Source: Escherichia phage SUT_E520
Sequence record: OQ990040
Strand: one strand, 5' to 3'
Length of the DNA stretch: 64,000 nucleotides
The notes under the pieces were generated by a model. The model saw only the letters and a program-made list of their open reading frames with translations. It did no database searches and was not told where the DNA came from. Shown here in pieces: positions 14,173-63,976 of this stretch; positions within the stretch are counted from its first letter, which is position 1; each line of letters starts with the position of its first letter. A program made the position numbers and the translations under genes.

Positions 14173-14362
14173 GGGTTTAAACGCCGCTTTGGAAAACGCA
14201 TTAATGCAGCACTGGGAAACTGGCTATAAGGATGGTGTTGAATCCTGCGCTACTATGCTAGAAGTTATTGCTAATACCTTAATGGAGAAAGGCAATAAAG
14301 AATTAGCTGAGCTATTAGACAGTATTGGGCAAAACTTCAGAGAACAGGTGAAAAATGCGTAG
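14141..14362 (+). CDS. hypothetical protein (73 aa)
   Basis: ORF track; overlapping operon spacing. Confidence 0.35.
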   Translation: MAFSKPMLPDKGLNAALENALMQHWETGYKDGVESCATMLEVIANTLMEKGNKELAELLDSIGQNFREQVKNA

Positions 14363-15170
14363 ATTAATTGTTATTAGCGGTGCAGGTTTGAGTGTTGAAA
14401 GTGGTGTACGAGCTTTTCGTACTGATACTGCTAGTGGTAAAGCATTGTGGGATGATTATGATCTAGAAGAAGTATGTAATATTCATGCCTTTCGTGGTAA
14501 TTTTTATCATAAAACCCATATGTTTTACAACAAGCGTCGTGAAGAGCTAAAAACTGTTGAACCCAATCTTGCGCATTTGCGTATCGGTGAATGGTATAAA
14601 CAATATCCAGGTCAAGTAGTAAACTTGACTACCAACGTTGATGACCTTATTGAGCGTTCTGGCGTTCCACATAATGACATTCTACACATTCATGGATATT
14701 TAAAAGAGGTTGTTGTAGCTGATAGCTACAATAGTAGCAATAAACGGATTATTGATGTAGGATACAATTCTATTGATCCAGATGATTATAAATGGGTTAA
14801 ACCTAATGTAATCTTCTTTGGAGAGCATGCTCCAGCATATGCGGAGATGTACAATGTTTTTGATGGTATTACCAGTCAAGATATGATCATTGTGGTTGGT
14901 TGCTCTAACCAAGTAATTAACTTCTACTGGGAATTATTTCCTGTTCTTAATTTGACTGCTGCCAAGCTAATGGTTGTTAACTACTATGATAGTGCCCTAG
15001 CGGCGGAACCGAGCTATCAAGGTATGACTCGTAGTGAGATGTACCAGCTGGAAGAACGCGGTATCCCTTACTGGGGTAAAGGTGCGGTAGATGCTTTCAG
15101 TGATCCTGATTTTATTGCTCGTGTAGAAGCTCATTTAGGGGGTAGACCTTATGTGTCAGGAAATAAGTAA
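14355..15170 (+). CDS. Sir2-like (sirtuin-fold) NAD-binding protein lacking the zinc ribbon
   Basis: GAGLSVESGVRAFR, NLAH...TTNVDDLIERSG, HIHGYL, PNVIFFGE and VVGCS align by eye to CobB/sirtuin motifs; no CxxC...CxxC zinc-binding cysteines. Confidence 0.7.
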   Translation: MRRLIVISGAGLSVESGVRAFRTDTASGKALWDDYDLEEVCNIHAFRGNFYHKTHMFYNKRREELKTVEPNLAHLRIGEWYKQYPGQVVNLTTNVDDLIERSGVPHNDILHIHGYLKEVVVADSYNSSNKRIIDVGYNSIDPDDYKWVKPNVIFFGEHAPAYAEMYNVFDGITSQDMIIVVGCSNQVINFYWELFPVLNLTAAKLMVVNYYDSALAAEPSYQGMTRSEMYQLEERGIPYWGKGAVDAFSDPDFIARVEAHLGGRPYVSGNK

Positions 15171-15663
15171 TACTCCAATTATTTTTCTAGACATTGATGG
15201 GGTGCTCAATTCGAGCATCTCCCACTATCATGCACCTGATGATGAAAAGATTTTCTTTGGAAGTGATTGGGTTTTCAAACCGCTTCTCAAGGCTTTTCAG
15301 GACTTTATTCGTCCTTCTCCAATAATGATTGTTGGAGTATCATCTTGGTTCTCTGTCAGAAATGAGATGGAGAACGTTCAGATTATGACCGGATTAGGCC
15401 TTATCGATCGTTTTCTTGGTACAACGGATTTTACTGGTGGTGGATTATCTAGGGGTAATTCTGTTCTTCGCTTCGTTGAAAAGCATAAGCTCAAACATTG
15501 GTGTGTGCTTGATGATGCGGGTGCTATGATGTATCAGTATCCAACGGTTATAGTCAACGGTAGGACTGGTATAAATCTTCAAGATTTAAAAGCTGTTAGC
15601 TATATGCTAGAATTTAGCCCAGATCTTGAAATGTGTAAATCCTTACAACAATTTAAGGTGTAA
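15151..15663 (+). CDS. HAD-superfamily phosphatase-like protein
   Basis: N-terminal FLDIDGVL (HAD motif I, DxDG) and a later VLDDAG acidic motif. Confidence 0.5.
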   Translation: MCQEISNTPIIFLDIDGVLNSSISHYHAPDDEKIFFGSDWVFKPLLKAFQDFIRPSPIMIVGVSSWFSVRNEMENVQIMTGLGLIDRFLGTTDFTGGGLSRGNSVLRFVEKHKLKHWCVLDDAGAMMYQYPTVIVNGRTGINLQDLKAVSYMLEFSPDLEMCKSLQQFKV

Positions 15664-15665
15664 AT

Positions 15666-16094
15666 ATGTTCAATAATGTATTCTCTAAAGAAGCTAACCC
15701 AATTTTGGTTAACTTTTGGCGTACTCTTCCAGCTAGCCTGTATAATGAGGCTATTAACTCTTTGAAAATATGGTGTGAGAATAACGAAATCTACTTTGCT
15801 TTTAAAGATGATATTGATGAAGCCCCCTGTATTGGTTTAATTGTTCAGGTAGAGGAGGGTCTTGAAGAGATTGTCGGCTGGAAAGAGTTAGATGAAATGG
15901 GCTTAGTTTTTGCGTTAAACTATAAGCTGTTTATGCCTGCTAAGCATCGCCTCGTTGTTAACTATAAAACTAGTGAATCTCCTGGTTTTCAAGTTAATGA
16001 ACGTTACGGTTGGTCTTACTCACCAGAAGAAGTGAATGATGGTATCCAAAAACTTCGCCGTTTCGGGTATATGATCCCAGGTTTAACTGCTTAA
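15666..16094 (+). CDS. hypothetical protein, paralog 1 of a tandem pair
   Basis: Shares DEAPCIGLIV, ELDEMGLVFALNYKLFMP and C-terminal RFGYMIPGL with the next ORF. Confidence 0.5.
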   Translation: MFNNVFSKEANPILVNFWRTLPASLYNEAINSLKIWCENNEIYFAFKDDIDEAPCIGLIVQVEEGLEEIVGWKELDEMGLVFALNYKLFMPAKHRLVVNYKTSESPGFQVNERYGWSYSPEEVNDGIQKLRRFGYMIPGLTA

Positions 16095-16103
16095 GGAGGC
16101 AGA

Positions 16104-16493
16104 ATGGAACAAGTATATTGGCGTCAGATTGACCCTAGTTTGGTGAAACGTGCGGAGAAGCTGCTACAACGTTGGTTGGGGGTAAGACAAGCCTCCTTCA
16201 CTTTTCCTGAGCAGCAAATAGATGATCCATGCATTGGCGTTTTCCTGTCTGGATACGCCAGGGAATGGGAACTGGATTGGAATGAGTTGTCTGCTATGGG
16301 TTTAATTGTTGCCCTAAATTTCTCTTTGTTCCATCCACGTGGTTTTGCCATATGTCGTGTGCCGGATGATGGTTGTTCGCCCCATCTTTTACAGGTGGAA
16401 AATGATATTTGGGAGTACACTCCAGATATTCTCAAAGAAGCTAAAGAACAATTAAACCGTGTTGGGATATATGTTCCGGGATTAAATGACTAA
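16104..16493 (+). CDS. hypothetical protein, paralog 2 of a tandem pair
   Basis: DDPCIGVFLSG, ELSAMGLIVALNFSLFHP and C-terminal RVGIYVPGL; GGAGG RBS. Confidence 0.5.
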   Translation: MEQVYWRQIDPSLVKRAEKLLQRWLGVRQASFTFPEQQIDDPCIGVFLSGYAREWELDWNELSAMGLIVALNFSLFHPRGFAICRVPDDGCSPHLLQVENDIWEYTPDILKEAKEQLNRVGIYVPGLND

Positions 16494-16519
16494 TGATTTT
16501 TATTAGCTGAACTCTGATT

Positions 16520-16545
16520 ACCGAGTCATTTTGGCTCGGTTTTAT
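16520..16545 (+). terminator. rho-independent terminator after the paralog pair
   Basis: ACCGAG - 9-nt loop - CTCGGT followed by TTTTAT. Confidence 0.55.
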
Positions 16546-16587
16546 CCGTACTCAAGACCAATGATAGCACCATCCGGAAAATTTTAC

Positions 16588-16616
16588 TTGCAGGATGCTC
16601 AAAATCTTGATATAAT
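16588..16616 (+). promoter_or_regulatory. promoter firing into the 16,620-17,115 non-coding region
   Basis: TTGCAG - 17 bp - TATAAT followed by a leader (ATTTATATTGAATTGAGAGAT) resembling the conserved early leader. Confidence 0.5.
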
Positions 16617-16679
16617 ATTTATATTGAATTGAGAGATATTAGTAAAAATTGATTTTGCTAATTTTTCTTGTTTACAATC

Positions 16680-17010
16680 CGCGATACGGAACAGTTAGGC
16701 TGCCCAATTAAGGGTTGTTTTAACTGTTACGTGTTAGTTTTTAAACAAATAGTTAATAGAATACTTAGCGATCTGCGTCCCGTAGGAACCCTGGTAAGGC
16801 CTCGAAGCAACCTAGATAGAGGTGGTTGTGAAGTGAGACGGGAGGAGTGAAAAACTCCGAGACGTGATTCTGTAAGTTATATTGCATCTAGTATGAGCTA
16901 GTACATGAAGCATTAGGTGAGCAAATCTGGCTTAGCGGCCATCCTCAAGGATTTGTGCGGTATAGCAAAGCAGCAGCGCAGCGTGAAAGTGGAAGTTGCC
17001 ACCCCACTTC
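16680..17010 (+). ncRNA. candidate structured non-coding RNA or long 5' leader / origin-proximal element
   Basis: GC-richer block with several local hairpins (e.g. GGAGTGAAAAACTCC), no credible ORF (only a TTG-start 60-aa ORF without RBS), no tRNA T-loop. Confidence 0.3.
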
Positions 17011-17115
17011 AGTATTTGCGATTAATTTGTTGAGAAATTGACAGTAACAGTTGTTCTATTCTTTCTGAATAGTCCTAAAGAAAACTTATTTCATTTCCAA
17101 CACAGGAGTATTGTT

Positions 17116-19905
17116 GTGTTCTCAATCCTACAAGGTCATGCAGGATTTCATCGCGATTTAGCCACAGGCAATTGGCGAGAAGTTAAAGCAGAAGACTATC
17201 TTTTTGCTAAAAGATTTTCCTCAAAGCATCCTGAAGGTAAACCAGCTTCAATGCCCTTCAAGTTTGATGTAATTGATGAAGTTGATCCTCAAACCCTAGT
17301 AGAAATGCTTCCTCTTATGAGACGTTTAACGTCTGACCCTCATATCGTTGCGGTACGAGGTCGATGTCTTACACCTAAAAATAATGTGCGACGTAAGAAG
17401 GGCAACTTTAATGTATCTAACCCAAGTCATATAATTGCAATGGACGTGGATGGTATTGTAGATACAGGTGGTTGCAACAAGTTTGATCTTGTTGGCATGG
17501 CTCGACATATTATTAGAATGTTAAATAGTATTAGTGAGGATATGTTTCCTCTTGATGCAGGGTTTATCGCTCATGCATCGTCTTCGGCTGGGCTAAAACC
17601 AGGTATCCGAATGCACTTAATACTAGAATCTAATGTTAAAGTAACTCAGGGTCAAATCAAATTCTTATTTACATCTATCAACGAAAGTAGTAGACAAAAG
17701 TATGGCTTTGATATTGCCGACTTAGCTTATTACTCTTCCGTACAGCTCCACTATTTTGCAGATCCGTTATTTACCGATGGTATAGTAGATCCGTTTAAAG
17801 CGGAGGGTGCTTCACGTCTGGTATTTGTTAAGGGTTCTAAAGTAAATTTACCCAATAATCTGGTTGACTATGAAACAACTAGAGGTGAGTTTAAGGAGGA
17901 GTTTTACTCTTTACTCGATCAAATTAAAGGTAAAAAAGCTGCCTCTGATAAAGTAGAGGAAACTATCAGCGAACTAGAAGAAGCTGAGGATGGAGTGTAT
18001 CTACGTATCATACCTAAACTCTATCACAGAGCCTTAGAGGATGGTGTTGATTTTGCATGGCTAGAAAAAGAAATCCGTCCAGCCTTATCAGAATATATTG
18101 CAACTAAAGATAACAGTCGCAATATTCAAGATTACTTTAATAACGGTCGTAAACAGGCTCTGAAAGCATTTGTTAATAATTCTAAACGTGATATACCTGA
18201 TGTTTTAAAGGGTATTCCACTTAAAAAGCTAGAAACTAATTCTCTAGAAACTGATAACTTCTTGAAATTAAATACTGTACCACCAGAAGGTTATATGACT
18301 TTTGTAAAAGCAAGTCTAGGTACAGGTAAAACTACAGCGGTTGTGCGTTGGTTAGATTCAGGAGTTATTAAAGGTAATTTCTTAGCAATTACCAATACTA
18401 GAGCACTGGTATCTTCAAATGCCAAGAAATTTAGTGCAGGACAATATGATAAGTCTGTAGATATGCTTAATTTTAAGCGGGGTGCTATTGACCGTATGTC
18501 CACAACTATTCACTCTTTGCATAAATTCAAGAGTTTTATTGGTCAAATTGATGCAATCTTTATCGATGAATGTGATGCAGTAATGAATGACCTATTATTC
18601 GCCCCGGTTGTTAAACAACGTCGCGAGTGTATTCAGGTTCTTCGGGATATTCTTGCAACTGCAAAAATCATTATATTATCTGATGGGGATATTAGTGCAG
18701 AAACAATTGAAGCATATGGTTCTTTGATTGAGTTTGATAAACCAGTAGCATTTTATAACCATCACCGTAAAATGCTATCAAAAGCTCATGCTTATGAGTT
18801 CCCGGATGAATCCAGTATTTGGGTTGCACTTCAGACTTCTCTAGAGATGGGTGAGAAATCTATCCTAGTATCTGACTGTGGGCCGGATGAACTGAATGAG
18901 AAGGGTATGGCATTGCGTCGTAATACGGGTGCGTTAGTTAAGGAAATCCACTCAAATTCTACATCCGATGTAGATATTCGACGTATTCTGGATTACACAA
19001 CTAATGAGCTAATTGATCAACAAATTGATTGCTTATTATGTAGTCCATCCGTAACAAGTGGTGTTGACTTCAACTATTTTGATAACGTATTCGTTATTAC
19101 TAGAACCAGCAACCAAGCGCCAAACATGCGTTTCCAAGCAATCAGGCGCGACCGTGGCGCTCAGAACATTTATTATTTTATTGATAAATCTACGAGTGGA
19201 TTCTCCGCAGGTTCTGAGCAATATAACATTGACGAAGGTTGGCTGGAGTTAGCACAACAATTATACGCACGTCGTAGAGAGCTGGAATCTAGGAATTATA
19301 CTAGTACTTTACGTTATTACTTGCTTGATCAGGGTGCAACTATTGATATTTTCAGTGAAAGCTGGGGAACTATCGAAGGTGCTGGGAAGGAATATACGGA
19401 AGAGCGAATCAAAGCTATTTTATATTCAACTCCTGATTATTGTGCTCCACGTCATGCTGATGCGTATGAAGCTAAACTACTTCTTGTTCGCTACTATCAT
19501 CTTGAGTCTATTAAAGATGTAACAGTTGAGCATGTTGAACAATATATCAAGGATAAACCTAATGATCGAGCGGCATTCTTCCATAAAATGCACGAGATGT
19601 TCTGGGAAGATATTAAGAAGTGTTCAAATGTCACTATCAAACCATTCATAGAAGCTCTGAAAGGTAAGAAGAAAGATTTCTTCCTTAAAACAGGTCAGAG
19701 TGCTAACCCAAAATATGCCAGAATGTATCTTGGTATGATGGGTATTGGTAAGGATATGAACACTGAAAATATTGTAGACTGGTACAGAACCTATTGTAAA
19801 ATCGAGTGTATGCCAATCCCCTATAAGTTTATGACTGATGAGGAGAAACATATGCATGATGAAGCAATGGCAGAGCTAGGTGCTAGAAATGACAGTGAAG
19901 AATAA
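17116..19905 (+). CDS. putative replication initiation protein: N-terminal primase-polymerase (AEP-like) domain fused to C-terminal SF2-type helicase/origin-binding domain
   Basis: N-terminal IIAMDVDG (hhhDhD-like) and KPGIRMHLIL (sGxGxH-like); C-terminal Walker A GTGKTT, Walker B IFIDECD, helicase-like SPSVTSGVDF and QAIRRDRG. Start moved to GTG 17116 (AGGAG RBS 7 nt upstream); the track ORF from 17038 has an implausible N-terminus. Confidence 0.6.
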   Translation: MFSILQGHAGFHRDLATGNWREVKAEDYLFAKRFSSKHPEGKPASMPFKFDVIDEVDPQTLVEMLPLMRRLTSDPHIVAVRGRCLTPKNNVRRKKGNFNVSNPSHIIAMDVDGIVDTGGCNKFDLVGMARHIIRMLNSISEDMFPLDAGFIAHASSSAGLKPGIRMHLILESNVKVTQGQIKFLFTSINESSRQKYGFDIADLAYYSSVQLHYFADPLFTDGIVDPFKAEGASRLVFVKGSKVNLPNNLVDYETTRGEFKEEFYSLLDQIKGKKAASDKVEETISELEEAEDGVYLRIIPKLYHRALEDGVDFAWLEKEIRPALSEYIATKDNSRNIQDYFNNGRKQALKAFVNNSKRDIPDVLKGIPLKKLETNSLETDNFLKLNTVPPEGYMTFVKASLGTGKTTAVVRWLDSGVIKGNFLAITNTRALVSSNAKKFSAGQYDKSVDMLNFKRGAIDRMSTTIHSLHKFKSFIGQIDAIFIDECDAVMNDLLFAPVVKQRRECIQVLRDILATAKIIILSDGDISAETIEAYGSLIEFDKPVAFYNHHRKMLSKAHAYEFPDESSIWVALQTSLEMGEKSILVSDCGPDELNEKGMALRRNTGALVKEIHSNSTSDVDIRRILDYTTNELIDQQIDCLLCSPSVTSGVDFNYFDNVFVITRTSNQAPNMRFQAIRRDRGAQNIYYFIDKSTSGFSAGSEQYNIDEGWLELAQQLYARRRELESRNYTSTLRYYLLDQGATIDIFSESWGTIEGAGKEYTEERIKAILYSTPDYCAPRHADAYEAKLLLVRYYHLESIKDVTVEHVEQYIKDKPNDRAAFFHKMHEMFWEDIKKCSNVTIKPFIEALKGKKKDFFLKTGQSANPKYARMYLGMMGIGKDMNTENIVDWYRTYCKIECMPIPYKFMTDEEKHMHDEAMAELGARNDSEE

Positions 19906-20122
19906 AAAATGGGAAACAAGGAAGTTTCCAGTAAAAGAACGTAAAGTTCCTGTTTACGACACTTCGGAAAAGCTATGTAGGGTGGTACCGCATAGATTAG
20001 CTGGCATCCCTAACATATCCGAGTGGTTACTTAAACAACGGAAAACAAACGTGTCTCTTCGTATCGGCTTTGAATTAGATAAAGTCTATGCTGAACTTGC
20101 TTCTTTACTCAAGGAATCGTAA
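19880..20122 (+). CDS. hypothetical small basic protein (80 aa; GTG start)
   Basis: ORF track; overlaps the 3' end of the preceding gene; no clear RBS. Confidence 0.3.
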   Translation: MLEMTVKNKKWETRKFPVKERKVPVYDTSEKLCRVVPHRLAGIPNISEWLLKQRKTNVSLRIGFELDKVYAELASLLKES

Positions 20123-20190: not shown

Positions 20191-20895
20191 ATGGCTGGTT
20201 CTCGTAGAAAGAAACATATCCATGAAATCCCGGATGAAGTCTTTAAAAAGGTTATAGAGCATCTGGAGAACGGTGGTACCAAGAAAGCAGCATGTGAAAT
20301 GCTCGGCGTATCATCCAATCCAACTATGGAAAGGATGATTGAAGAATGGCAAGACCGCCAGATTCAAGTGGCTGAAATGAAGAAAAAGAAACGTGGCACA
20401 CTCATTGAAGGCATTGAGTTAGCTAACGTTATTGAACAGTATTTGTCTGGTGATTCTTTTGAAGAAATTGCCGATCGTAATTACCGCTCTGTAGCAATGG
20501 TTAAATCTGTTCTGGAACGATATGGTGCTCTGCTTCGTTTGAATGATATTGTAGATCCATTGAATCCTCCAATTATTCCTGATGATGCTGTAGCAGAAGA
20601 ATTTGCAGTTGGTGAGCTTGTTTGGGTTCCTGGATACCAGTGTATCGGTGAAATCAAAAAAGCAATGGATAACCCTGTTGGTTGTTACCGTGTATGGCTT
20701 CTATCAGAAGGCAAACAACAGAACGTTCATTATATGAATTACGAGCTGGCTTCTGTTAAACATCTGGAAAAGTTAGGGGTAGACGTAAAATCTCTAGGAT
20801 ATAAGTGGACTCGTGAAGAAATTATTACGTTGATTAACGAAGCTGTTAAGGCTGCCCTGAAACTTGATAAAGAAAAAGGAAAACGCCGTGAGTAA
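20191..20895 (+). CDS. putative HTH DNA-binding protein (transcriptional regulator-like)
   Basis: HTH-like GGTKKAACEMLGVSSNPT and a second EEIADRNYRSVAMVKSVLERYG; basic C-terminus. Confidence 0.45.
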   Translation: MAGSRRKKHIHEIPDEVFKKVIEHLENGGTKKAACEMLGVSSNPTMERMIEEWQDRQIQVAEMKKKKRGTLIEGIELANVIEQYLSGDSFEEIADRNYRSVAMVKSVLERYGALLRLNDIVDPLNPPIIPDDAVAEEFAVGELVWVPGYQCIGEIKKAMDNPVGCYRVWLLSEGKQQNVHYMNYELASVKHLEKLGVDVKSLGYKWTREEIITLINEAVKAALKLDKEKGKRRE

Positions 20896-22704: not shown

Positions 22705-23676
22705 ATGACCAATGTAAAAGACTTTATTAAACGTTGCCAAGAAGCATATTATCAAGGTATGTCTTTAATCTCTGATGAAGAGTATGATTGCCTGGTAAAA
22801 CGCTTTCCGTTAGAAGAAGAGATCGGACCTAAGGGCGATATTCCACATCTGTATCGTATGTATTCTTTACAGAAAGTTTATTATAATCGTGGAGATAAAC
22901 CTCCGTTTAACCCGTTAGGTCAAGTAGAAACTGATAAGTTAGATGGTTGTGCAATTTCTCTGTTATATATTAATGGCGAATTTGTTCAAGCACTAACTCG
23001 TGGTAATGGTATTCTAGGGAATGATGTCACAAGCAACGTAAGATTGCTGAATATCCCTAAAAAGATTTCCCAAAAAGTACCTACTCAAATCACTGGTGAA
23101 GTTCTAATTACAAAAGAAGTAGAAAATAAACGTAACTTTGCCTCTGGTGCTATTAACCTCAAAGATAGTGATGATTTTGTACAACGTATCGGAGAAGGTG
23201 GTTTAATCTTCGTTGCATATGGTATCCAGTGTTCTGCTGAATCTGTAGGTATTACAGAAGCATATTTAAAAGATATGCTTTGGCTGGAGAATGAGAACTT
23301 CTTAACAGTTGTTAATGTGCGTTCCTTCTTTAAATGGATTCCGACGGATGGTAAAGTTGTTCGTATTAATGACAACAACAAATTCTTCCGTGAAGGCTGG
23401 ACTAATAAATTCCCTCGTGGAGCATTCGCTATTAAAGAGGATGAAGAAGGCGAGGTTACAACTCTTACTAAAGTTGAATGGCAGGTAGGGGCTTCTGGTA
23501 AAGTAACTCCAGTTGGTTATTTCGAACCGGTAATTATTGATGATGCTACAATTGTTAAAGCGACTCTTAATAACGTTGATTATATTAACTCTCTTGATCT
23601 AGAGATCGGTTGCCAGATTCGAGTGATTCGTGCTGGTGGTGTAATCCCGTGCATAGTAGAGCGAGTATACGAGTAA
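22705..23676 (+). CDS. NAD-dependent DNA ligase, N-terminal half (adenylation and OB domains)
   Basis: Adenylation motif ETDKLDGCAIS (KxDG) and downstream LigA-like nucleotidyltransferase/OB sequence; ends before the Zn-finger/HhH/BRCT part. Confidence 0.75.
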   Translation: MTNVKDFIKRCQEAYYQGMSLISDEEYDCLVKRFPLEEEIGPKGDIPHLYRMYSLQKVYYNRGDKPPFNPLGQVETDKLDGCAISLLYINGEFVQALTRGNGILGNDVTSNVRLLNIPKKISQKVPTQITGEVLITKEVENKRNFASGAINLKDSDDFVQRIGEGGLIFVAYGIQCSAESVGITEAYLKDMLWLENENFLTVVNVRSFFKWIPTDGKVVRINDNNKFFREGWTNKFPRGAFAIKEDEEGEVTTLTKVEWQVGASGKVTPVGYFEPVIIDDATIVKATLNNVDYINSLDLEIGCQIRVIRAGGVIPCIVERVYE

Positions 23677-23848: not shown

Positions 23849-23878
23849 ATTTATATAAATTGATAAGGAAGAAATTTG

Positions 23879-24649
23879 ATGAAAATCGAAATTCCAACAC
23901 AATGTCCCTCTTGTGGTTCTAAGCTAGATCTTGTCAACGGACAATTATTTTGTCGGAATAAGTCCAACTGTCCAGCGCAATCAAGTAAGTTAATTGAGAA
24001 CTTCTGTACAAAAATGAAGTTAAAGGGTTTTGGTCCAAAAACTATTGAGAAGCTGGAGCTGACGAAGATTTCAGAACTATTTTACCTAACCGAAGAAGAT
24101 TTGGTTAGAGCCGTGGGTAGCAAGGTTGCCGCTAAGTTAATTAGCGAATTAAATACTAAAGTTCGCGGAGACATTGACTTTGGTTCAGTTCTCGGTTCTT
24201 TAGGAATCCCTCTAATTGGAGAGGTTGCAGCAAAGAAATTATCCCAAAATTGCACTAGCTTCCACGATGTGAAGGCTGACGGCAAGGCTGGAGAAAATTA
24301 TAAAGCCTGGCTAAATTCCCCACAAGGCAAGGATGTTATCGAATTACCGTGGAAATTCTCAACTGGTGCTAAAGCTAAAACCGTCGTTACTGATGATTTA
24401 GTTGCCCAGCCAAATGGAATCGCGGTATGTATTACCGGATCTTTGCAAGACTTTGCAAATCGAACGGATGCAACAAACTATTTAGAAGGTCTAGGATATA
24501 CGGTTAAGAAATCTGTTACCAAAGACGTCAAATACCTAATCTGTGAGGATGAATCGAAGCGTTCTTCCTCATCTTATAAGAAAGCCGAAACGAATGGGAT
24601 AGAAATCCTGTCGATTAAAGAACTATTGGAGAAAAATAATAATGTCTAA
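23879..24649 (+). CDS. NAD-dependent DNA ligase, C-terminal half (Zn-finger, HhH, BRCT)
   Basis: Cys4 motif CPSCGS...CRNKSNCPAQ, HhH-like GIPLIGEVAAKKL, BRCT-like AVCITGSL...YLICED; ATG at 23879 preferred over TTG at 23876. Confidence 0.7.
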   Translation: MKIEIPTQCPSCGSKLDLVNGQLFCRNKSNCPAQSSKLIENFCTKMKLKGFGPKTIEKLELTKISELFYLTEEDLVRAVGSKVAAKLISELNTKVRGDIDFGSVLGSLGIPLIGEVAAKKLSQNCTSFHDVKADGKAGENYKAWLNSPQGKDVIELPWKFSTGAKAKTVVTDDLVAQPNGIAVCITGSLQDFANRTDATNYLEGLGYTVKKSVTKDVKYLICEDESKRSSSSYKKAETNGIEILSIKELLEKNNNV

Positions 24650-25409: not shown

Positions 25410-25491
25410 TCTGGTAAATTAAACCTAAGGGGAGGGGGCTATGCTCCTTCCCCTTTTTGCATTTAGAAGGCACGAAAGCGTGCAAAGGAGA

Positions 25492-26964
25492 ATGACCTTG
25501 TTTAACGTGCAAGCTGTAGTGTTGAAGATGCTTCTAGCTTCCGAACAGAAGCAAATAGCATTGGAAACATTCTCAAAACTGCATAAAGATCATTTTAATG
25601 ACGCTTTCTCCTCAATTTACCAAGCCGTCCAGAATTATTATAAAAAATATAACACAATGCCGTCCATTGACGCACTTATGCTTGAAGCTAATAGGAACGC
25701 CCGCCTTTCTCAAGCCCTAGTCGTCTTAGCTAACACTCAAATTCCAGAAGTGAGCATGGAACAGGCACTTGAAGTCCTAGAGGCCGAGTATACACAGGAT
25801 TTATTCCTGAAGCTTCTAGAAACAGACGTGCTTCAAGATTTAACAATGCTGGATCAGGGAGAAATTCTCAACCGAGTTGCCTCCCTTCACTTAAAATTAG
25901 AAGAGAAAGTAACGAATACTGGAAAAGTATTCAACGCAGATAACATGCGTATTTTCCAGAGAGAAGAAGATACCAAACTGAACTTAATCGCTCTTGGTAT
26001 TTGTAATGAGTTCGATGCTCAAATTGGTTTAGCTCGCACAGAAACGTTACTGCTTGGTGGTTGGCGTGGTACTGGTAAATCCATTATCTGTTCAAACATA
26101 CAGGTTCAGCAATATTTGAATGGAGATATTGCTCCATACTTCTCAATTGAGATGAAAGAACATGAAGTATTTAGACGTAATCTAGCCATGTTAGCCGGGG
26201 TATCAGCACTAGCAATGCGTAATAATACTCTAGAAGGTGCAGCTCTATTGAGATTAGCCAGAACTAGAGCTAGAATGTTCAACGGGGGTGAAGAGCTTTT
26301 CGATAACTTCGTTAAACAGTATACAATGGCTAAGATGAGTGATTTCTACGATATGGAGAGTAAGCTAATAGAGGGGTATGAACTACATACTCCTATGATT
26401 ATCGTTTATGACCCTGAACTGTCCATTACAACAGTTGACGTAGAATTAAATAAATTAGTTGCTAGATATGGTGATAAAGTTACAGTAGCTTTACTGGACT
26501 ATATTAACCAAACCCGACTTCCAGATTCTAAAACCATTGATATGTATGACTGGAAGGAACAGATGGTTGTTAGCTCGTCTTTCAAATCCATCTGCCAGAA
26601 ACATAACGTGGCTGGCGTAGCTCCCTACCAGATCGATCAAGATGGTAGAACACGTATGTCAAAGGGGATTCTTGATTCCGCAGACATGGCTGCTAATCTT
26701 AATGCTGCTAAAGCTGATAATGGTCAAGGTGCTATTATGTTTGACTTTGTTAAGACTCGTTCTTCTGATAGCGTGAAGTTTATGCCTAAAATGAATTGGG
26801 AAACTCTGCGAATGGATAATACTACCAACCTAGCAATGGAAGATATATCTCAAATGGAAGCTGAGTTCGTTATCCCTATTGAGAAGGATAAGCCGGCTCA
26901 ACCTAAACGTGCTAAGAAAGACAAAACTGAAAATTCAACAGGTGAACAGGCCAGCGATATATGA
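25492..26964 (+). CDS. DnaB/RecA-fold replicative helicase-like ATPase
   Basis: Walker A LLGGWRGTGKS and downstream Walker B-like acidic strand. Start uncertain: the track ORF begins at 25441 inside a terminator-like hairpin; in-frame ATG at 25492 follows AAGGAG. Confidence 0.6.
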   Translation: MTLFNVQAVVLKMLLASEQKQIALETFSKLHKDHFNDAFSSIYQAVQNYYKKYNTMPSIDALMLEANRNARLSQALVVLANTQIPEVSMEQALEVLEAEYTQDLFLKLLETDVLQDLTMLDQGEILNRVASLHLKLEEKVTNTGKVFNADNMRIFQREEDTKLNLIALGICNEFDAQIGLARTETLLLGGWRGTGKSIICSNIQVQQYLNGDIAPYFSIEMKEHEVFRRNLAMLAGVSALAMRNNTLEGAALLRLARTRARMFNGGEELFDNFVKQYTMAKMSDFYDMESKLIEGYELHTPMIIVYDPELSITTVDVELNKLVARYGDKVTVALLDYINQTRLPDSKTIDMYDWKEQMVVSSSFKSICQKHNVAGVAPYQIDQDGRTRMSKGILDSADMAANLNAAKADNGQGAIMFDFVKTRSSDSVKFMPKMNWETLRMDNTTNLAMEDISQMEAEFVIPIEKDKPAQPKRAKKDKTENSTGEQASDI

Positions 26965-27851
26965 GTAGAATAACAGAACTACTTGATCTGAAAGGCATTG
27001 AATATAAAGACACAGGTGGGGACATCCTCATCTGTTGTCTCAATCCAGATCATGACGATAAACACCCAAGTTTGCGTATTGATCCTGAAACAGGTATTAT
27101 GCACTGCTTGAGTTGTGGCTTCGGTAAAGGTATACCGAGCATTTACCATTATTTTAATGAGACTCAGTACCGACAGTCTCCAAGACTATCGCAGGTACGT
27201 AAAAAGATTTCAGAGATTAGGAATGGATCTACAAATCTTGCAATTCCTGAATCTGCTTACCTTTTCGAAGGTGATTTCCGAGGTATAAGTTCTAAGACCT
27301 TGAAGAAATACTTTGCTTTCCAACACCAAGCAGACTGGGAAGGCAGAATTGTATTCCCAATCACAGATGCTGTTGGACGCAATATCCTATTTTTGGGTCG
27401 TTCTATAAACAGTTCTGCCCCTCCTAAATACTTAGTAAAACCAAAACAAGTTTCACCACCGATTTTCCCTGTACGATATAATACTCCAGTTCTTATTCTA
27501 GTTGAAGGTATCTTTGATATGCTGAACCTAGAGGATAATGGTATAGACTATGCTTCTTGCTGCTTTGGTACACATCAGTTTACTTCAGATAACATTGCAG
27601 ATAAGTTTAGCCCTTATATTATTGCTGGTGTAAAAGTTGTTGTTATCTTACTAGATAATGATGCTTCTGGTAATAAAGCTGCACAAGCGTTGGCCAAGCT
27701 AATTCGTACAAAAACGCGTTTAACACCTGTAGTGGCTAACTTTCTTCTACCCGAAGGTAAAGACCCTGGTGACTTAAATAAAGAAGAAATTGATATGTTA
27801 GCAAAACGTATTGAAATTTTAGTTGCTGAATCGCTTAAAGATTTGGTATAA
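26961..27851 (+). CDS. DnaG-like DNA primase (zinc-binding plus TOPRIM)
   Basis: CHC2-type zinc motif CCLNPDHDDKHPSL...HCLSCG, TOPRIM-like LVEGIFDMLNL and ILLDNDASG. Confidence 0.8.
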   Translation: MSRITELLDLKGIEYKDTGGDILICCLNPDHDDKHPSLRIDPETGIMHCLSCGFGKGIPSIYHYFNETQYRQSPRLSQVRKKISEIRNGSTNLAIPESAYLFEGDFRGISSKTLKKYFAFQHQADWEGRIVFPITDAVGRNILFLGRSINSSAPPKYLVKPKQVSPPIFPVRYNTPVLILVEGIFDMLNLEDNGIDYASCCFGTHQFTSDNIADKFSPYIIAGVKVVVILLDNDASGNKAAQALAKLIRTKTRLTPVVANFLLPEGKDPGDLNKEEIDMLAKRIEILVAESLKDLV

Positions 27852-29239: not shown

Positions 29240-29339
29240 NNNNNNNNNNNNNNNNNNNNNNNNNNNNNNNNNNNNNNNNNNNNNNNNNNNNNNNNNNNNN
29301 NNNNNNNNNNNNNNNNNNNNNNNNNNNNNNNNNNNNNNN
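29240..29339. other. N-run (assembly gap) without duplicated flanks, inside the DNA polymerase gene
   Basis: 100 N; flanks not identical; polymerase frame resumes after the gap. Confidence 0.9.
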
Positions 29340-33453: not shown

Positions 33454-33553
33454 NNNNNNNNNNNNNNNNNNNNNNNNNNNNNNNNNNNNNNNNNNNNNNN
33501 NNNNNNNNNNNNNNNNNNNNNNNNNNNNNNNNNNNNNNNNNNNNNNNNNNNNN
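33454..33553. other. N-run (assembly gap) without duplicated flanks, between the SSB-like and SbcD-like genes
   Basis: 100 N; flanks differ. Confidence 0.9.
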
Positions 33554-63476: not shown

Positions 63477-63976
63477 TACTTCTTACCTCCAGTAGCTAGG
63501 GAAGTAATTAAGTCCATGTAGTTTTGATCCCCAGCTCCAGCAATAATATTATTCTGGATGTTGGTCTGNNNNNNNNNNNNNNNNNNNNNNNNNNNNNNNN
63601 NNNNNNNNNNNNNNNNNNNNNNNNNNNNNNNNNNNNNNNNNNNNNNNNNNNNNNNNNNNNNNNNNNNNTTCCAGAGAATATCCATAATATCTTGGTCAGA
63701 ACCCATGCCAGTTTCTTCCAGTTCCTCTAGTTTACGCTTGATAACCTCATCTAGAACACCAAATAAACGATCTCTGTTACGGAATCCACTCTCCATAAAA
63801 ATATCGTTTAAGTAATTCTTAACTTCACTACGATTCATAATATCTCGGAAAGCAATTTCGGACATCCCAAGACTACGTGCGGCAGAAGGCACATCGCTGC
63901 CGCACTGTAAATACGCTTCAATTACATCCATCCCTTCAGGGGACATAAGATCTGGTACTAATACATCATTTGCCAT
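63476..63976 (-). CDS. putative terminase small subunit (interrupted by an N-run)
   Basis: Small HTH-like protein ([19 protein letters not shown]) immediately upstream of the large terminase gene with start/stop overlap. Confidence 0.5.
63569..63668. other. N-run (assembly gap) without duplicated flanks, inside the putative small terminase gene
   Basis: 100 N; flanks differ. Confidence 0.9.

Follow-up and report, generated by a model that had tools for sequence, protein, structure and literature searches.

Why does a phage that encodes both a DnaB-like helicase and a DnaG-type primase also carry a single large protein in which primase-like and helicase motifs are combined? This question is raised by the gene at positions 17116..19905 of the 64,000-nucleotide stretch of Escherichia phage SUT_E520 analysed here (sequence record OQ990040; the whole stretch is hereafter referred to as the window). 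A preliminary description, made from the letters of the sequence, had read the product as an archaeo-eukaryotic primase (AEP)-like region fused to a C-terminal P-loop helicase. On sequence evidence, the gene is D2 of the T5 family, a known gene ('replication origin binding protein') that belongs to the T5 D2 orthologous group. The N-terminal third of the protein is predicted, from a structural model and from residue conservation, to form an AEP fold with an intact active site, and the C-terminal two-thirds are confirmed as a UL9/Herpes_ori_bp-type helicase of superfamily 2 (SF2). The D2 gene, the non-coding region that precedes it and the DnaB-like and DnaG-type genes all lie on the plus strand.

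A predicted primase domain in the N-terminal third of D2

The predicted AEP catalytic domain spans residues 1–260 (17116..17895). Using the published definitions of the AEP motifs (hhhDhD/E, sxH and hD/E; PMC5862659), motifs I, II and III were located in canonical order (IIAMD110VD112, GIRMH167 and IAD202). Motif I is IIAMDVDG (hhhDhD; residues 106–113; 17431..17454) and contributes D110 and D112, the motif II region is SSSAGLKPGIRMHLIL (17578..17625) and contains H167, and motif III is DIADLAYY (hD; 17710..17733), with D202. None of these four residues varies among the 30 D2-family proteins, nor does S155, despite an average pairwise identity of 29% across the domain, a pattern that is hard to explain without catalysis. 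With remote homologues counted in, D112 and D202 are invariant in 42 out of 42 sequences, while an Arg replaces the motif II His in six of the 42, all of them remote homologues. In D2, GIRMH167 sits on a beta-strand, and the 's' position of the motif is occupied by Arg or Lys, not by a small residue.

The model of the N-terminal domain has a pLDDT of 94.1, and its predicted fold is an AEP catalytic fold. The AEP-like N terminus of the preliminary description was examined for a different fold or for missing acidic residues, and neither was found, the DxD pair, the His and the Asp all being invariant in the family; that part of the description therefore holds, at the level of a prediction. A viral fold search with this domain returned phage primase-helicases. 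The AEPs listed for it include, with their figures, the monkeypox E5 AEP domain (6.3), poxvirus D5 (5.8), the herpes simplex virus (HSV) primase UL52 (5.7, over 163 aligned residues) and the cyanophage S-2L PrimPol (5.3). Also listed, without figures, are archaeal and bacterial non-homologous end-joining polymerases, HP0184, eukaryotic and archaeal PriS, CAPP, C962R of African swine fever virus and RepB' of RSF1010.

When 1.84 billion representative proteins were searched exhaustively with residues 1–380, 81 homologues were recovered. About 30 of them are full-length D2-like proteins (25–80% full-length identity), and the others share with D2 just residues ~30–260. The domains found C-terminal to this shared region in the remote homologues are PriCT_2 (4 out of 44), VapE-like (10 out of 44) and DUF5906 (8 out of 44), as well as D5_N or Pox_D5; in phages and plasmids, AEP primases are usually partnered with such domains (PMC5862659). 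The profile PHROG 16950, labelled 'DNA primase', was matched by 26 of the 42 trimmed domains. A word-indexed homologue search with the N-terminal domain yielded two fragments only. In phage SUT_E420, what looked like a 177-nt insertion within the AEP-coding region proved to be 100 consecutive N in an incomplete genome record and was discarded as an artefact.

Several results weigh against the AEP assignment. Neither Pfam nor NCBIfam profiles detected an AEP family in the N-terminal domain, and the same profiles gave no AEP match among the 42 trimmed homologues or the 30 full-length family members. Hidden Markov model (HMM) profiles of the domain found nothing among PDB sequences, and hhalign against a small alignment of the S-2L PrimPol family returned a non-significant probability of 0.4; the sole local alignment, itself not significant, sets H167 on the motif II His of the PrimPol. 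The check by HMM search that the preliminary description had called for was answered in part: the profile of the origin-binding helicase family (PF02399) matched above its cut-off, and no AEP family was detected with Pfam or NCBIfam profiles or among PDB sequences. No zinc-finger motif was found in D2, and primase activity is not among the results reported for purified T5 D2 (Wong, Sayers, Sanders et al., Nucleic Acids Research 2013; PMC3632103). Many AEP primases need a PriCT domain for dinucleotide synthesis, and none is demonstrable here. The position that PriCT domains occupy in other AEP-helicase fusions is taken in D2 by a four-helix linker domain (residues 262–380; 17899..18255), with helices at 278–356 and a disordered stretch at 250–261 ahead of it in the AlphaFold2 model. 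None of the 30 D2-family members gave a Pfam match to PriCT in this region, an HMM of residues 262–380 reached just E >= 0.17 in the homologues (hhalign probability 0.2), and the linker was ruled out as a PriCT_2 domain for want of significant similarity by either method.

The missing match to a curated AEP profile, the absence of a detectable zinc finger and PriCT helper domain and the Arg that takes the place of the motif II His in six remote homologues would all suit a catalytically dead relic, kept as a DNA-binding or oligomerisation module while the DnaG type is the only working primase. We consider such a relic quite unlikely, because the predicted catalytic residues have been held fixed through the family at a mean identity at which most of the domain has changed, and two of them are fixed in the remote homologues too. 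The AEP assignment, with a predicted intact active site, is in our view well supported by the model and by conservation.

The D2 gene and its helicase half

The 929-residue product is translated from a GTG at 17116 to a stop at 19905, and a Shine–Dalgarno sequence, AGGAG (17104..17108), can be read 7 nt ahead of the GTG, at a place equivalent to that of the ribosome-binding site annotated in phage Lindwurm. The open reading frame (ORF) given in the preliminary description is thus the right one: the coding sequence in OQ885479, a 100%-identical record, covers exactly 17116–19905, and the published cloning primer for T5 D2 opens at the same GTG-Phe-Ser-Ile-Leu-Gln (PMC3632103). In the mechanical ORF list the frame opens further upstream, at a TTG at 17038. 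Positions 17000–20000 of the window are 100% identical in DNA to Escherichia phage SUT_E1520 (Demerecviridae, Tequintavirus) and are matched by 506 phage records, many of them T5-like phages at 97–98% identity. The protein belongs over its full length to PHROG 3712 (E 4e-198 and 0 for the two halves) and shares 92% identity with T5 D2 (AAU05245) across 926 residues; the T5 orthologue has the same GTG start, genomic position and neighbours, with no substantive difference in the protein. Database names for the gene are inconsistent ('replication origin binding protein', 'DNA primase C', 'OriC binding protein' and 'hypothetical protein'), and one domain-based name could replace them. Several GenBank records call it 'DNA primase C' or 'putative DNA primase', so the idea of a primase already exists as an unexplained database label.

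The T5 protein has been purified, and its helicase activity was shown to depend on ATP and to run with both 5'-3' and 3'-5' polarity (PMC3632103). Wong et al. likened it both to UL9 of herpesviruses and to RepA-like proteins, and mapped Walker A and B, motif V, motif VI, a putative helix-turn-helix at 308–329 and coiled coils on it; no primase domain was recognised, and the first 380 residues were left essentially without annotation (PMC3632103).

The SF2 helicase core, of the UL9/N15 RepA/CyRepA type, occupies residues 381–700 (18256..19215). SF2 motifs I, II, V and VI are present and invariant across the family: Walker A is GTGKTT (402–407), Walker B is IFIDECD (481–487), motif V is SPSVTSGVDF (643–652) and motif VI is QAIRRDRG (674–681). 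Together with those at 106–113 and 162–170 (PGIRMHLIL), these make up the six peptides quoted in the preliminary description, all of which are present. The P-loop helicase that it had read in the C-terminal part can now be placed in SF2 and likened to UL9, since Pfam Herpes_ori_bp (PF02399) matches residues 394–533 with 29.2 bits against a cut-off of 20. The sole significant PDB sequence matches for D2 are entries of the HSV-1 origin-binding protein (OBP; phmmer E 2e-5). Structure prediction, another check that had been proposed, agrees with this: in a full-length AlphaFold model built from 30 family members (mean pLDDT 88.2), the top four Foldseek matches in the PDB are HSV-1 OBP chains (9hgj and 9hgi), with E-values of 2e-15 to 2e-13 over ~550–590 aligned columns, and RecQ, BLM, DEAD-box and other SF2 helicases rank next. 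The NCBIfam profile CyRepA1 (NF042913) aligns to residues 393–722 (E 5e-35), with a score of 121.6 bits that lies under the cut-off of 200, and D2 is, therefore, not a member of CyRepA1. Across 329 columns, the helicase region of N15 RepA is 21% identical to that of D2 (pairwise E 6e-5), and every motif falls in register.

UL9 of HSV-1 is thus the best sequence and structure match to the helicase half, at a sequence identity of ~15%, and both proteins are SF2 helicases implicated in initiation. They differ in that UL9 has no primase domain, the herpesvirus AEP primase UL52 being encoded separately, whereas D2 is a predicted fusion. UL9 is reported to be unidirectional (3'-5'), while T5 D2 is bipolar. 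Sequence-specific origin binding has been demonstrated for UL9, to which D2 is likened by the sequence and structure of its helicase half. Closer in organization is RepA of phage N15 (and of PY54), which, like D2, joins a primase domain to an SF2 helicase in a tailed phage and has a homologous helicase core; its primase domain, however, is of the DnaG/Toprim type and not an AEP, and N15 lacks a separate DnaB/DnaG/PolA set. CyRepA1 (Slr7037), the Rep protein of a cyanobacterial plasmid, likewise combines a primase-related N-terminal domain with a DEXDc helicase, and D2 aligns with it over the helicase region only; the N-terminal domain of CyRepA1 is DUF3854, for which the authors suggest kinship with Toprim rather than AEP (PMC10079941). 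Both N15 RepA and CyRepA1, in which a helicase is joined to a primase-type domain, are reported to drive the replication of their own replicon (PMC10079941 and PMC4889955).

The same architecture as that of D2, with an AEP N-terminal to a UL9-like SF2 helicase, is described in PMC4889955 and PMC5862659 for gp68 of phage PAU and for All3500-family AEPs fused to UL9-like pVOG9714 helicases in phages and plasmids. The architecture is, therefore, of a known kind; the D2 domain matches no curated AEP profile, and its likeness to the All3500 fusions is one of architecture.

Downstream of the helicase core lies a C-terminal alpha-helical domain (residues 701–929; 19216..19902), whose helices are modelled with confidence and whose mean identity in the family is just 23%. 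It is a candidate DNA- or partner-binding domain.

Two predicted priming systems and the proposed role of D2

The separate helicase and primase named in the preliminary description are both present, intact, 5.5 kb downstream of D2. The DnaB-like replicative helicase (superfamily 4, SF4; 25441..26964) matches Pfam DnaB_C (35.7 bits, cut-off 27) and PHROG 19 (E 1e-62), contains a P-loop and is annotated dnaB in T5. Its start needs correction, as public records place it at 25441 and the 25492 given earlier is an in-frame internal ATG. The bacterial-type primase at 26961..27851 needs no such change: it has the CHC2 zinc ribbon, DnaG_N and Toprim regions of a DnaG-type enzyme, with Toprim_2, Toprim_4, Zn_ribbon_DnaG and DNAG_N all above the Pfam cut-offs, a match to PHROG 47 (E 5e-57) and the Toprim motifs VEGIFD and DND in its translation.

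Gene order is like that of the T5 early replication region: nrd genes and several small ORFs, then D2, a split NAD-dependent ligase, a D5-like regulator, the DnaB-like helicase, the DnaG-like primase, a family A DNA polymerase and the D10 helicase. The same order, with the split ligase, DnaB, DnaG and PolA, surrounds a D2 homologue of 33% identity (P0022); the contig with another of 22% identity (P0036) extends through the ligase and the D5-like gene and stops short of the place where DnaB and DnaG would be expected. The N-terminal domain is present in 905 phage records, from phages of ~100–127 kb that infect Escherichia, Salmonella, Klebsiella, Vibrio, Proteus, Providencia, Aeromonas and Pectobacterium. 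Because synteny is held in the relative at 33% identity and the domain recurs in these 905 records, it is, as far as sequence comparison can tell, an old and conserved trait of this phage family to carry an AEP-helicase fusion alongside a helicase-primase pair of bacterial type.

With its predicted AEP domain and intact active site, D2 would give T5-like phages, which also have the DnaG-type enzyme, two unrelated primases. A global survey of dsDNA viruses describes genomes with either an AEP or a DnaG homologue, the sole exception being Rhodothermus phage RM378 (PMC4889955). RM378, as the survey describes it, has an AEP together with a DnaG-type primase, and the T5-like phages appear to form a second, far larger group with both primase types.

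One explanation for the coexistence would make D2 the main replicative primase-helicase at the fork, like N15 RepA or vaccinia D5, and leave auxiliary tasks to DnaB and DnaG, such as lagging-strand or late recombination-dependent replication. DNA synthesis depends on D2, Wong et al. speculated on its acting at the fork (PMC3632103), and N15 RepA, whose helicase core is homologous, is cited in PMC4889955 as an experimentally confirmed replicative helicase in an SF2 helicase-primase fusion. We nevertheless find this explanation highly unlikely: both the DnaB-like and the DnaG-like gene remain intact, beside the polymerase, where they are conserved across the family, and SF2 helicases that act as monomers or dimers are, according to the same survey, rarely the processive fork helicase where a hexameric DnaB homologue is present (PMC4889955).

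We consider it rather probable that D2 is a replication initiator in which an AEP domain, a helical domain, a UL9-like SF2 helicase and a C-terminal helical domain are brought together in one polypeptide. Such a role, put forward for D2 by Wong et al. (PMC3632103), is suggested by three observations. Earlier genetics cited by the same authors showed that D2 amber mutants undergo no net DNA replication (PMC3632103); initiator roles are known for all characterised relatives of its helicase (UL9, N15 RepA and CyRepA1); and no other initiator-like gene was seen among the ten neighbouring ORFs. In this proposal, D2 would bind and open duplex DNA at the expense of ATP, a helicase activity known from T5 D2, and its AEP domain would lay the first primer or primers on the exposed strand, possibly with deoxynucleoside triphosphates, as PrimPols do. 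The T5 DNA polymerase would extend the D2-made primer, after which the DnaB-like helicase and the DnaG-type primase would take over fork progression and lagging-strand priming. Of this scheme, we infer the primer synthesis, the origin specificity and the hand-off to the DnaB/DnaG machinery, as well as the restriction to origin initiation that the preliminary description had suggested for one of the two systems. The complete hybrid, with an essential fusion of AEP and UL9-type helicase that opens an origin, primes the first strands and hands over to a bacterial-type DnaB-DnaG-PolA fork, is put forward more tentatively, as a possibility that we hold somewhat short of probable.

The biochemistry of T5 D2 would also accommodate a fork-restart or damage-tolerance enzyme that re-primes past blocks, like eukaryotic PrimPol, while DnaB and DnaG do the regular priming; the single-strand interruptions that occur naturally in T5 virion DNA could be among these blocks. 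T5 D2 is reported to unwind forked and tailed substrates in a bipolar, structure-dependent way, which suits fork remodelling (PMC3632103), the full DnaB/DnaG/PolA set is at hand for regular synthesis, and sequence-specific origin binding is not among the results reported for D2. The amber phenotype, however, is harsher than expected of a restart factor, and the helicase family is the one known from initiators, which leaves a restart enzyme unlikely.

There are also points that an initiator role for D2 does not readily accommodate. No mapped origin adjoins D2, and none is known for T5-like phages; a recombineering study inferred that T5 replication is predominantly unidirectional, from one genome end (PMC10055335). 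The 622-nt non-coding region that precedes D2 (16494..17115) contains a terminator-like hairpin and promoters, followed by a leader of ~440–490 nt. It shows no convincing iteron-like repeats, just short two-copy matches, and its centre (16782–17042, 260 nt) is unrelated to an equally long segment in T5, while both flanks are 90% identical. Over most of its length this centre has a GC content of 42–50%, compared with ~39% for the genome. One consensus promoter lies at 16649–16678, and an extended -10 (TGATATAAT) was recognised by eye at 16608–16616, where T5 annotates a putative promoter. The RNA fold of the region has a z of -2.5, and no Rfam match was found in it. Long non-coding stretches precede distant D2 homologues too, of 1049 nt (L006:1179-2226) and 724 nt (L007:7291-8013), the latter with 42-nt repeats ~150 nt apart. 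The upstream region may represent a leader RNA, an origin or an exchanged cassette; since its centre is not conserved even with T5, we claim no origin there.

Neighbouring features and significance for T5-like phages

Other features of the region deserve a brief account. The split NAD-dependent DNA ligase lies at 22705–23676 (adenylation/OB) and 23876–24649 (BRCT/Zn), the two parts ~200 nt apart as in T5, and the same split is seen in L006 and L007, relatives with D2 at 22–33% identity. T5 differs from the phage studied here by an HNH endonuclease gene directly 3' of D2 and by an HNH-motif-like gene between dnaB and the primase gene (L003:4781-5281 and L003:12075-12608). Both are absent from the corresponding places in the window (19905–20122 and 26961–26964), where the stop of dnaB overlaps the start of the primase gene, and phage Lindwurm has an HNH gene after D2 at yet another site. 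This pattern suggests traffic of mobile homing endonucleases in the replication module.

The ORF at 20191–20895 (234 aa) is 'D3 protein' in T5 AY692264 and 'D2 protein' elsewhere (Lindwurm, ABTNLsp9). It carries the PHROG 3611 label 'helicase' though the protein is short, and no P-loop was seen by eye, no dedicated search having been made; the label probably spread from the confusion over the name D2. Just upstream of the leader of D2 is a tandem pair of paralogues (15666–16094 and 16104–16493; 142 and 129 aa), both of PHROG 2502 at ~E 1e-62. Further upstream, 14355–15663 holds a Sir2-like protein (NAD-dependent deacetylase family) and then an overlapping ORF, its C-terminal half matching a 'Sir2' PHROG; a Sir2-like enzyme is unusual for the early region of a lytic phage. 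The window also contains 15 runs of exactly 100 N, representing masked or gap sequence, at 29240–29339 and at 14 further places (33454–33553 to 63569–63668), one of which breaks the DNA polymerase gene, a single coding sequence in the identical public record.

What is new here is modest but real, namely a well-supported AEP assignment, based on a model and on conservation, with a predicted intact active site in a T5 protein that is classical, essential and amenable to purification. Neither this assignment nor the two-primase arrangement was found in the literature searched, and the main texts of PMC4889955 and PMC5862659 make no mention of phage T5 or T5-like phages.

How replication is initiated in T5, a classical model phage, is still poorly understood, and D2, which is needed for DNA synthesis and easily purified, has been studied only in its helicase half. 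If the AEP domain is active, it would explain how T5 DNA synthesis starts without a recognisable DnaA- or lambda-O-type initiator, and a whole phage family would join the single virus reported to have both primase types (PMC4889955). A protein of a tailed phage would also be linked with the origin-binding helicase of herpesviruses as well as with the herpesvirus-type primase fold. Should the hybrid system prove true, the Demerecviridae, with >900 sequenced genomes, would form a large and tractable exception to the 'either AEP or DnaG' rule, and D2 would be a phage counterpart of the herpesvirus UL9 and UL52 pair within one polypeptide.

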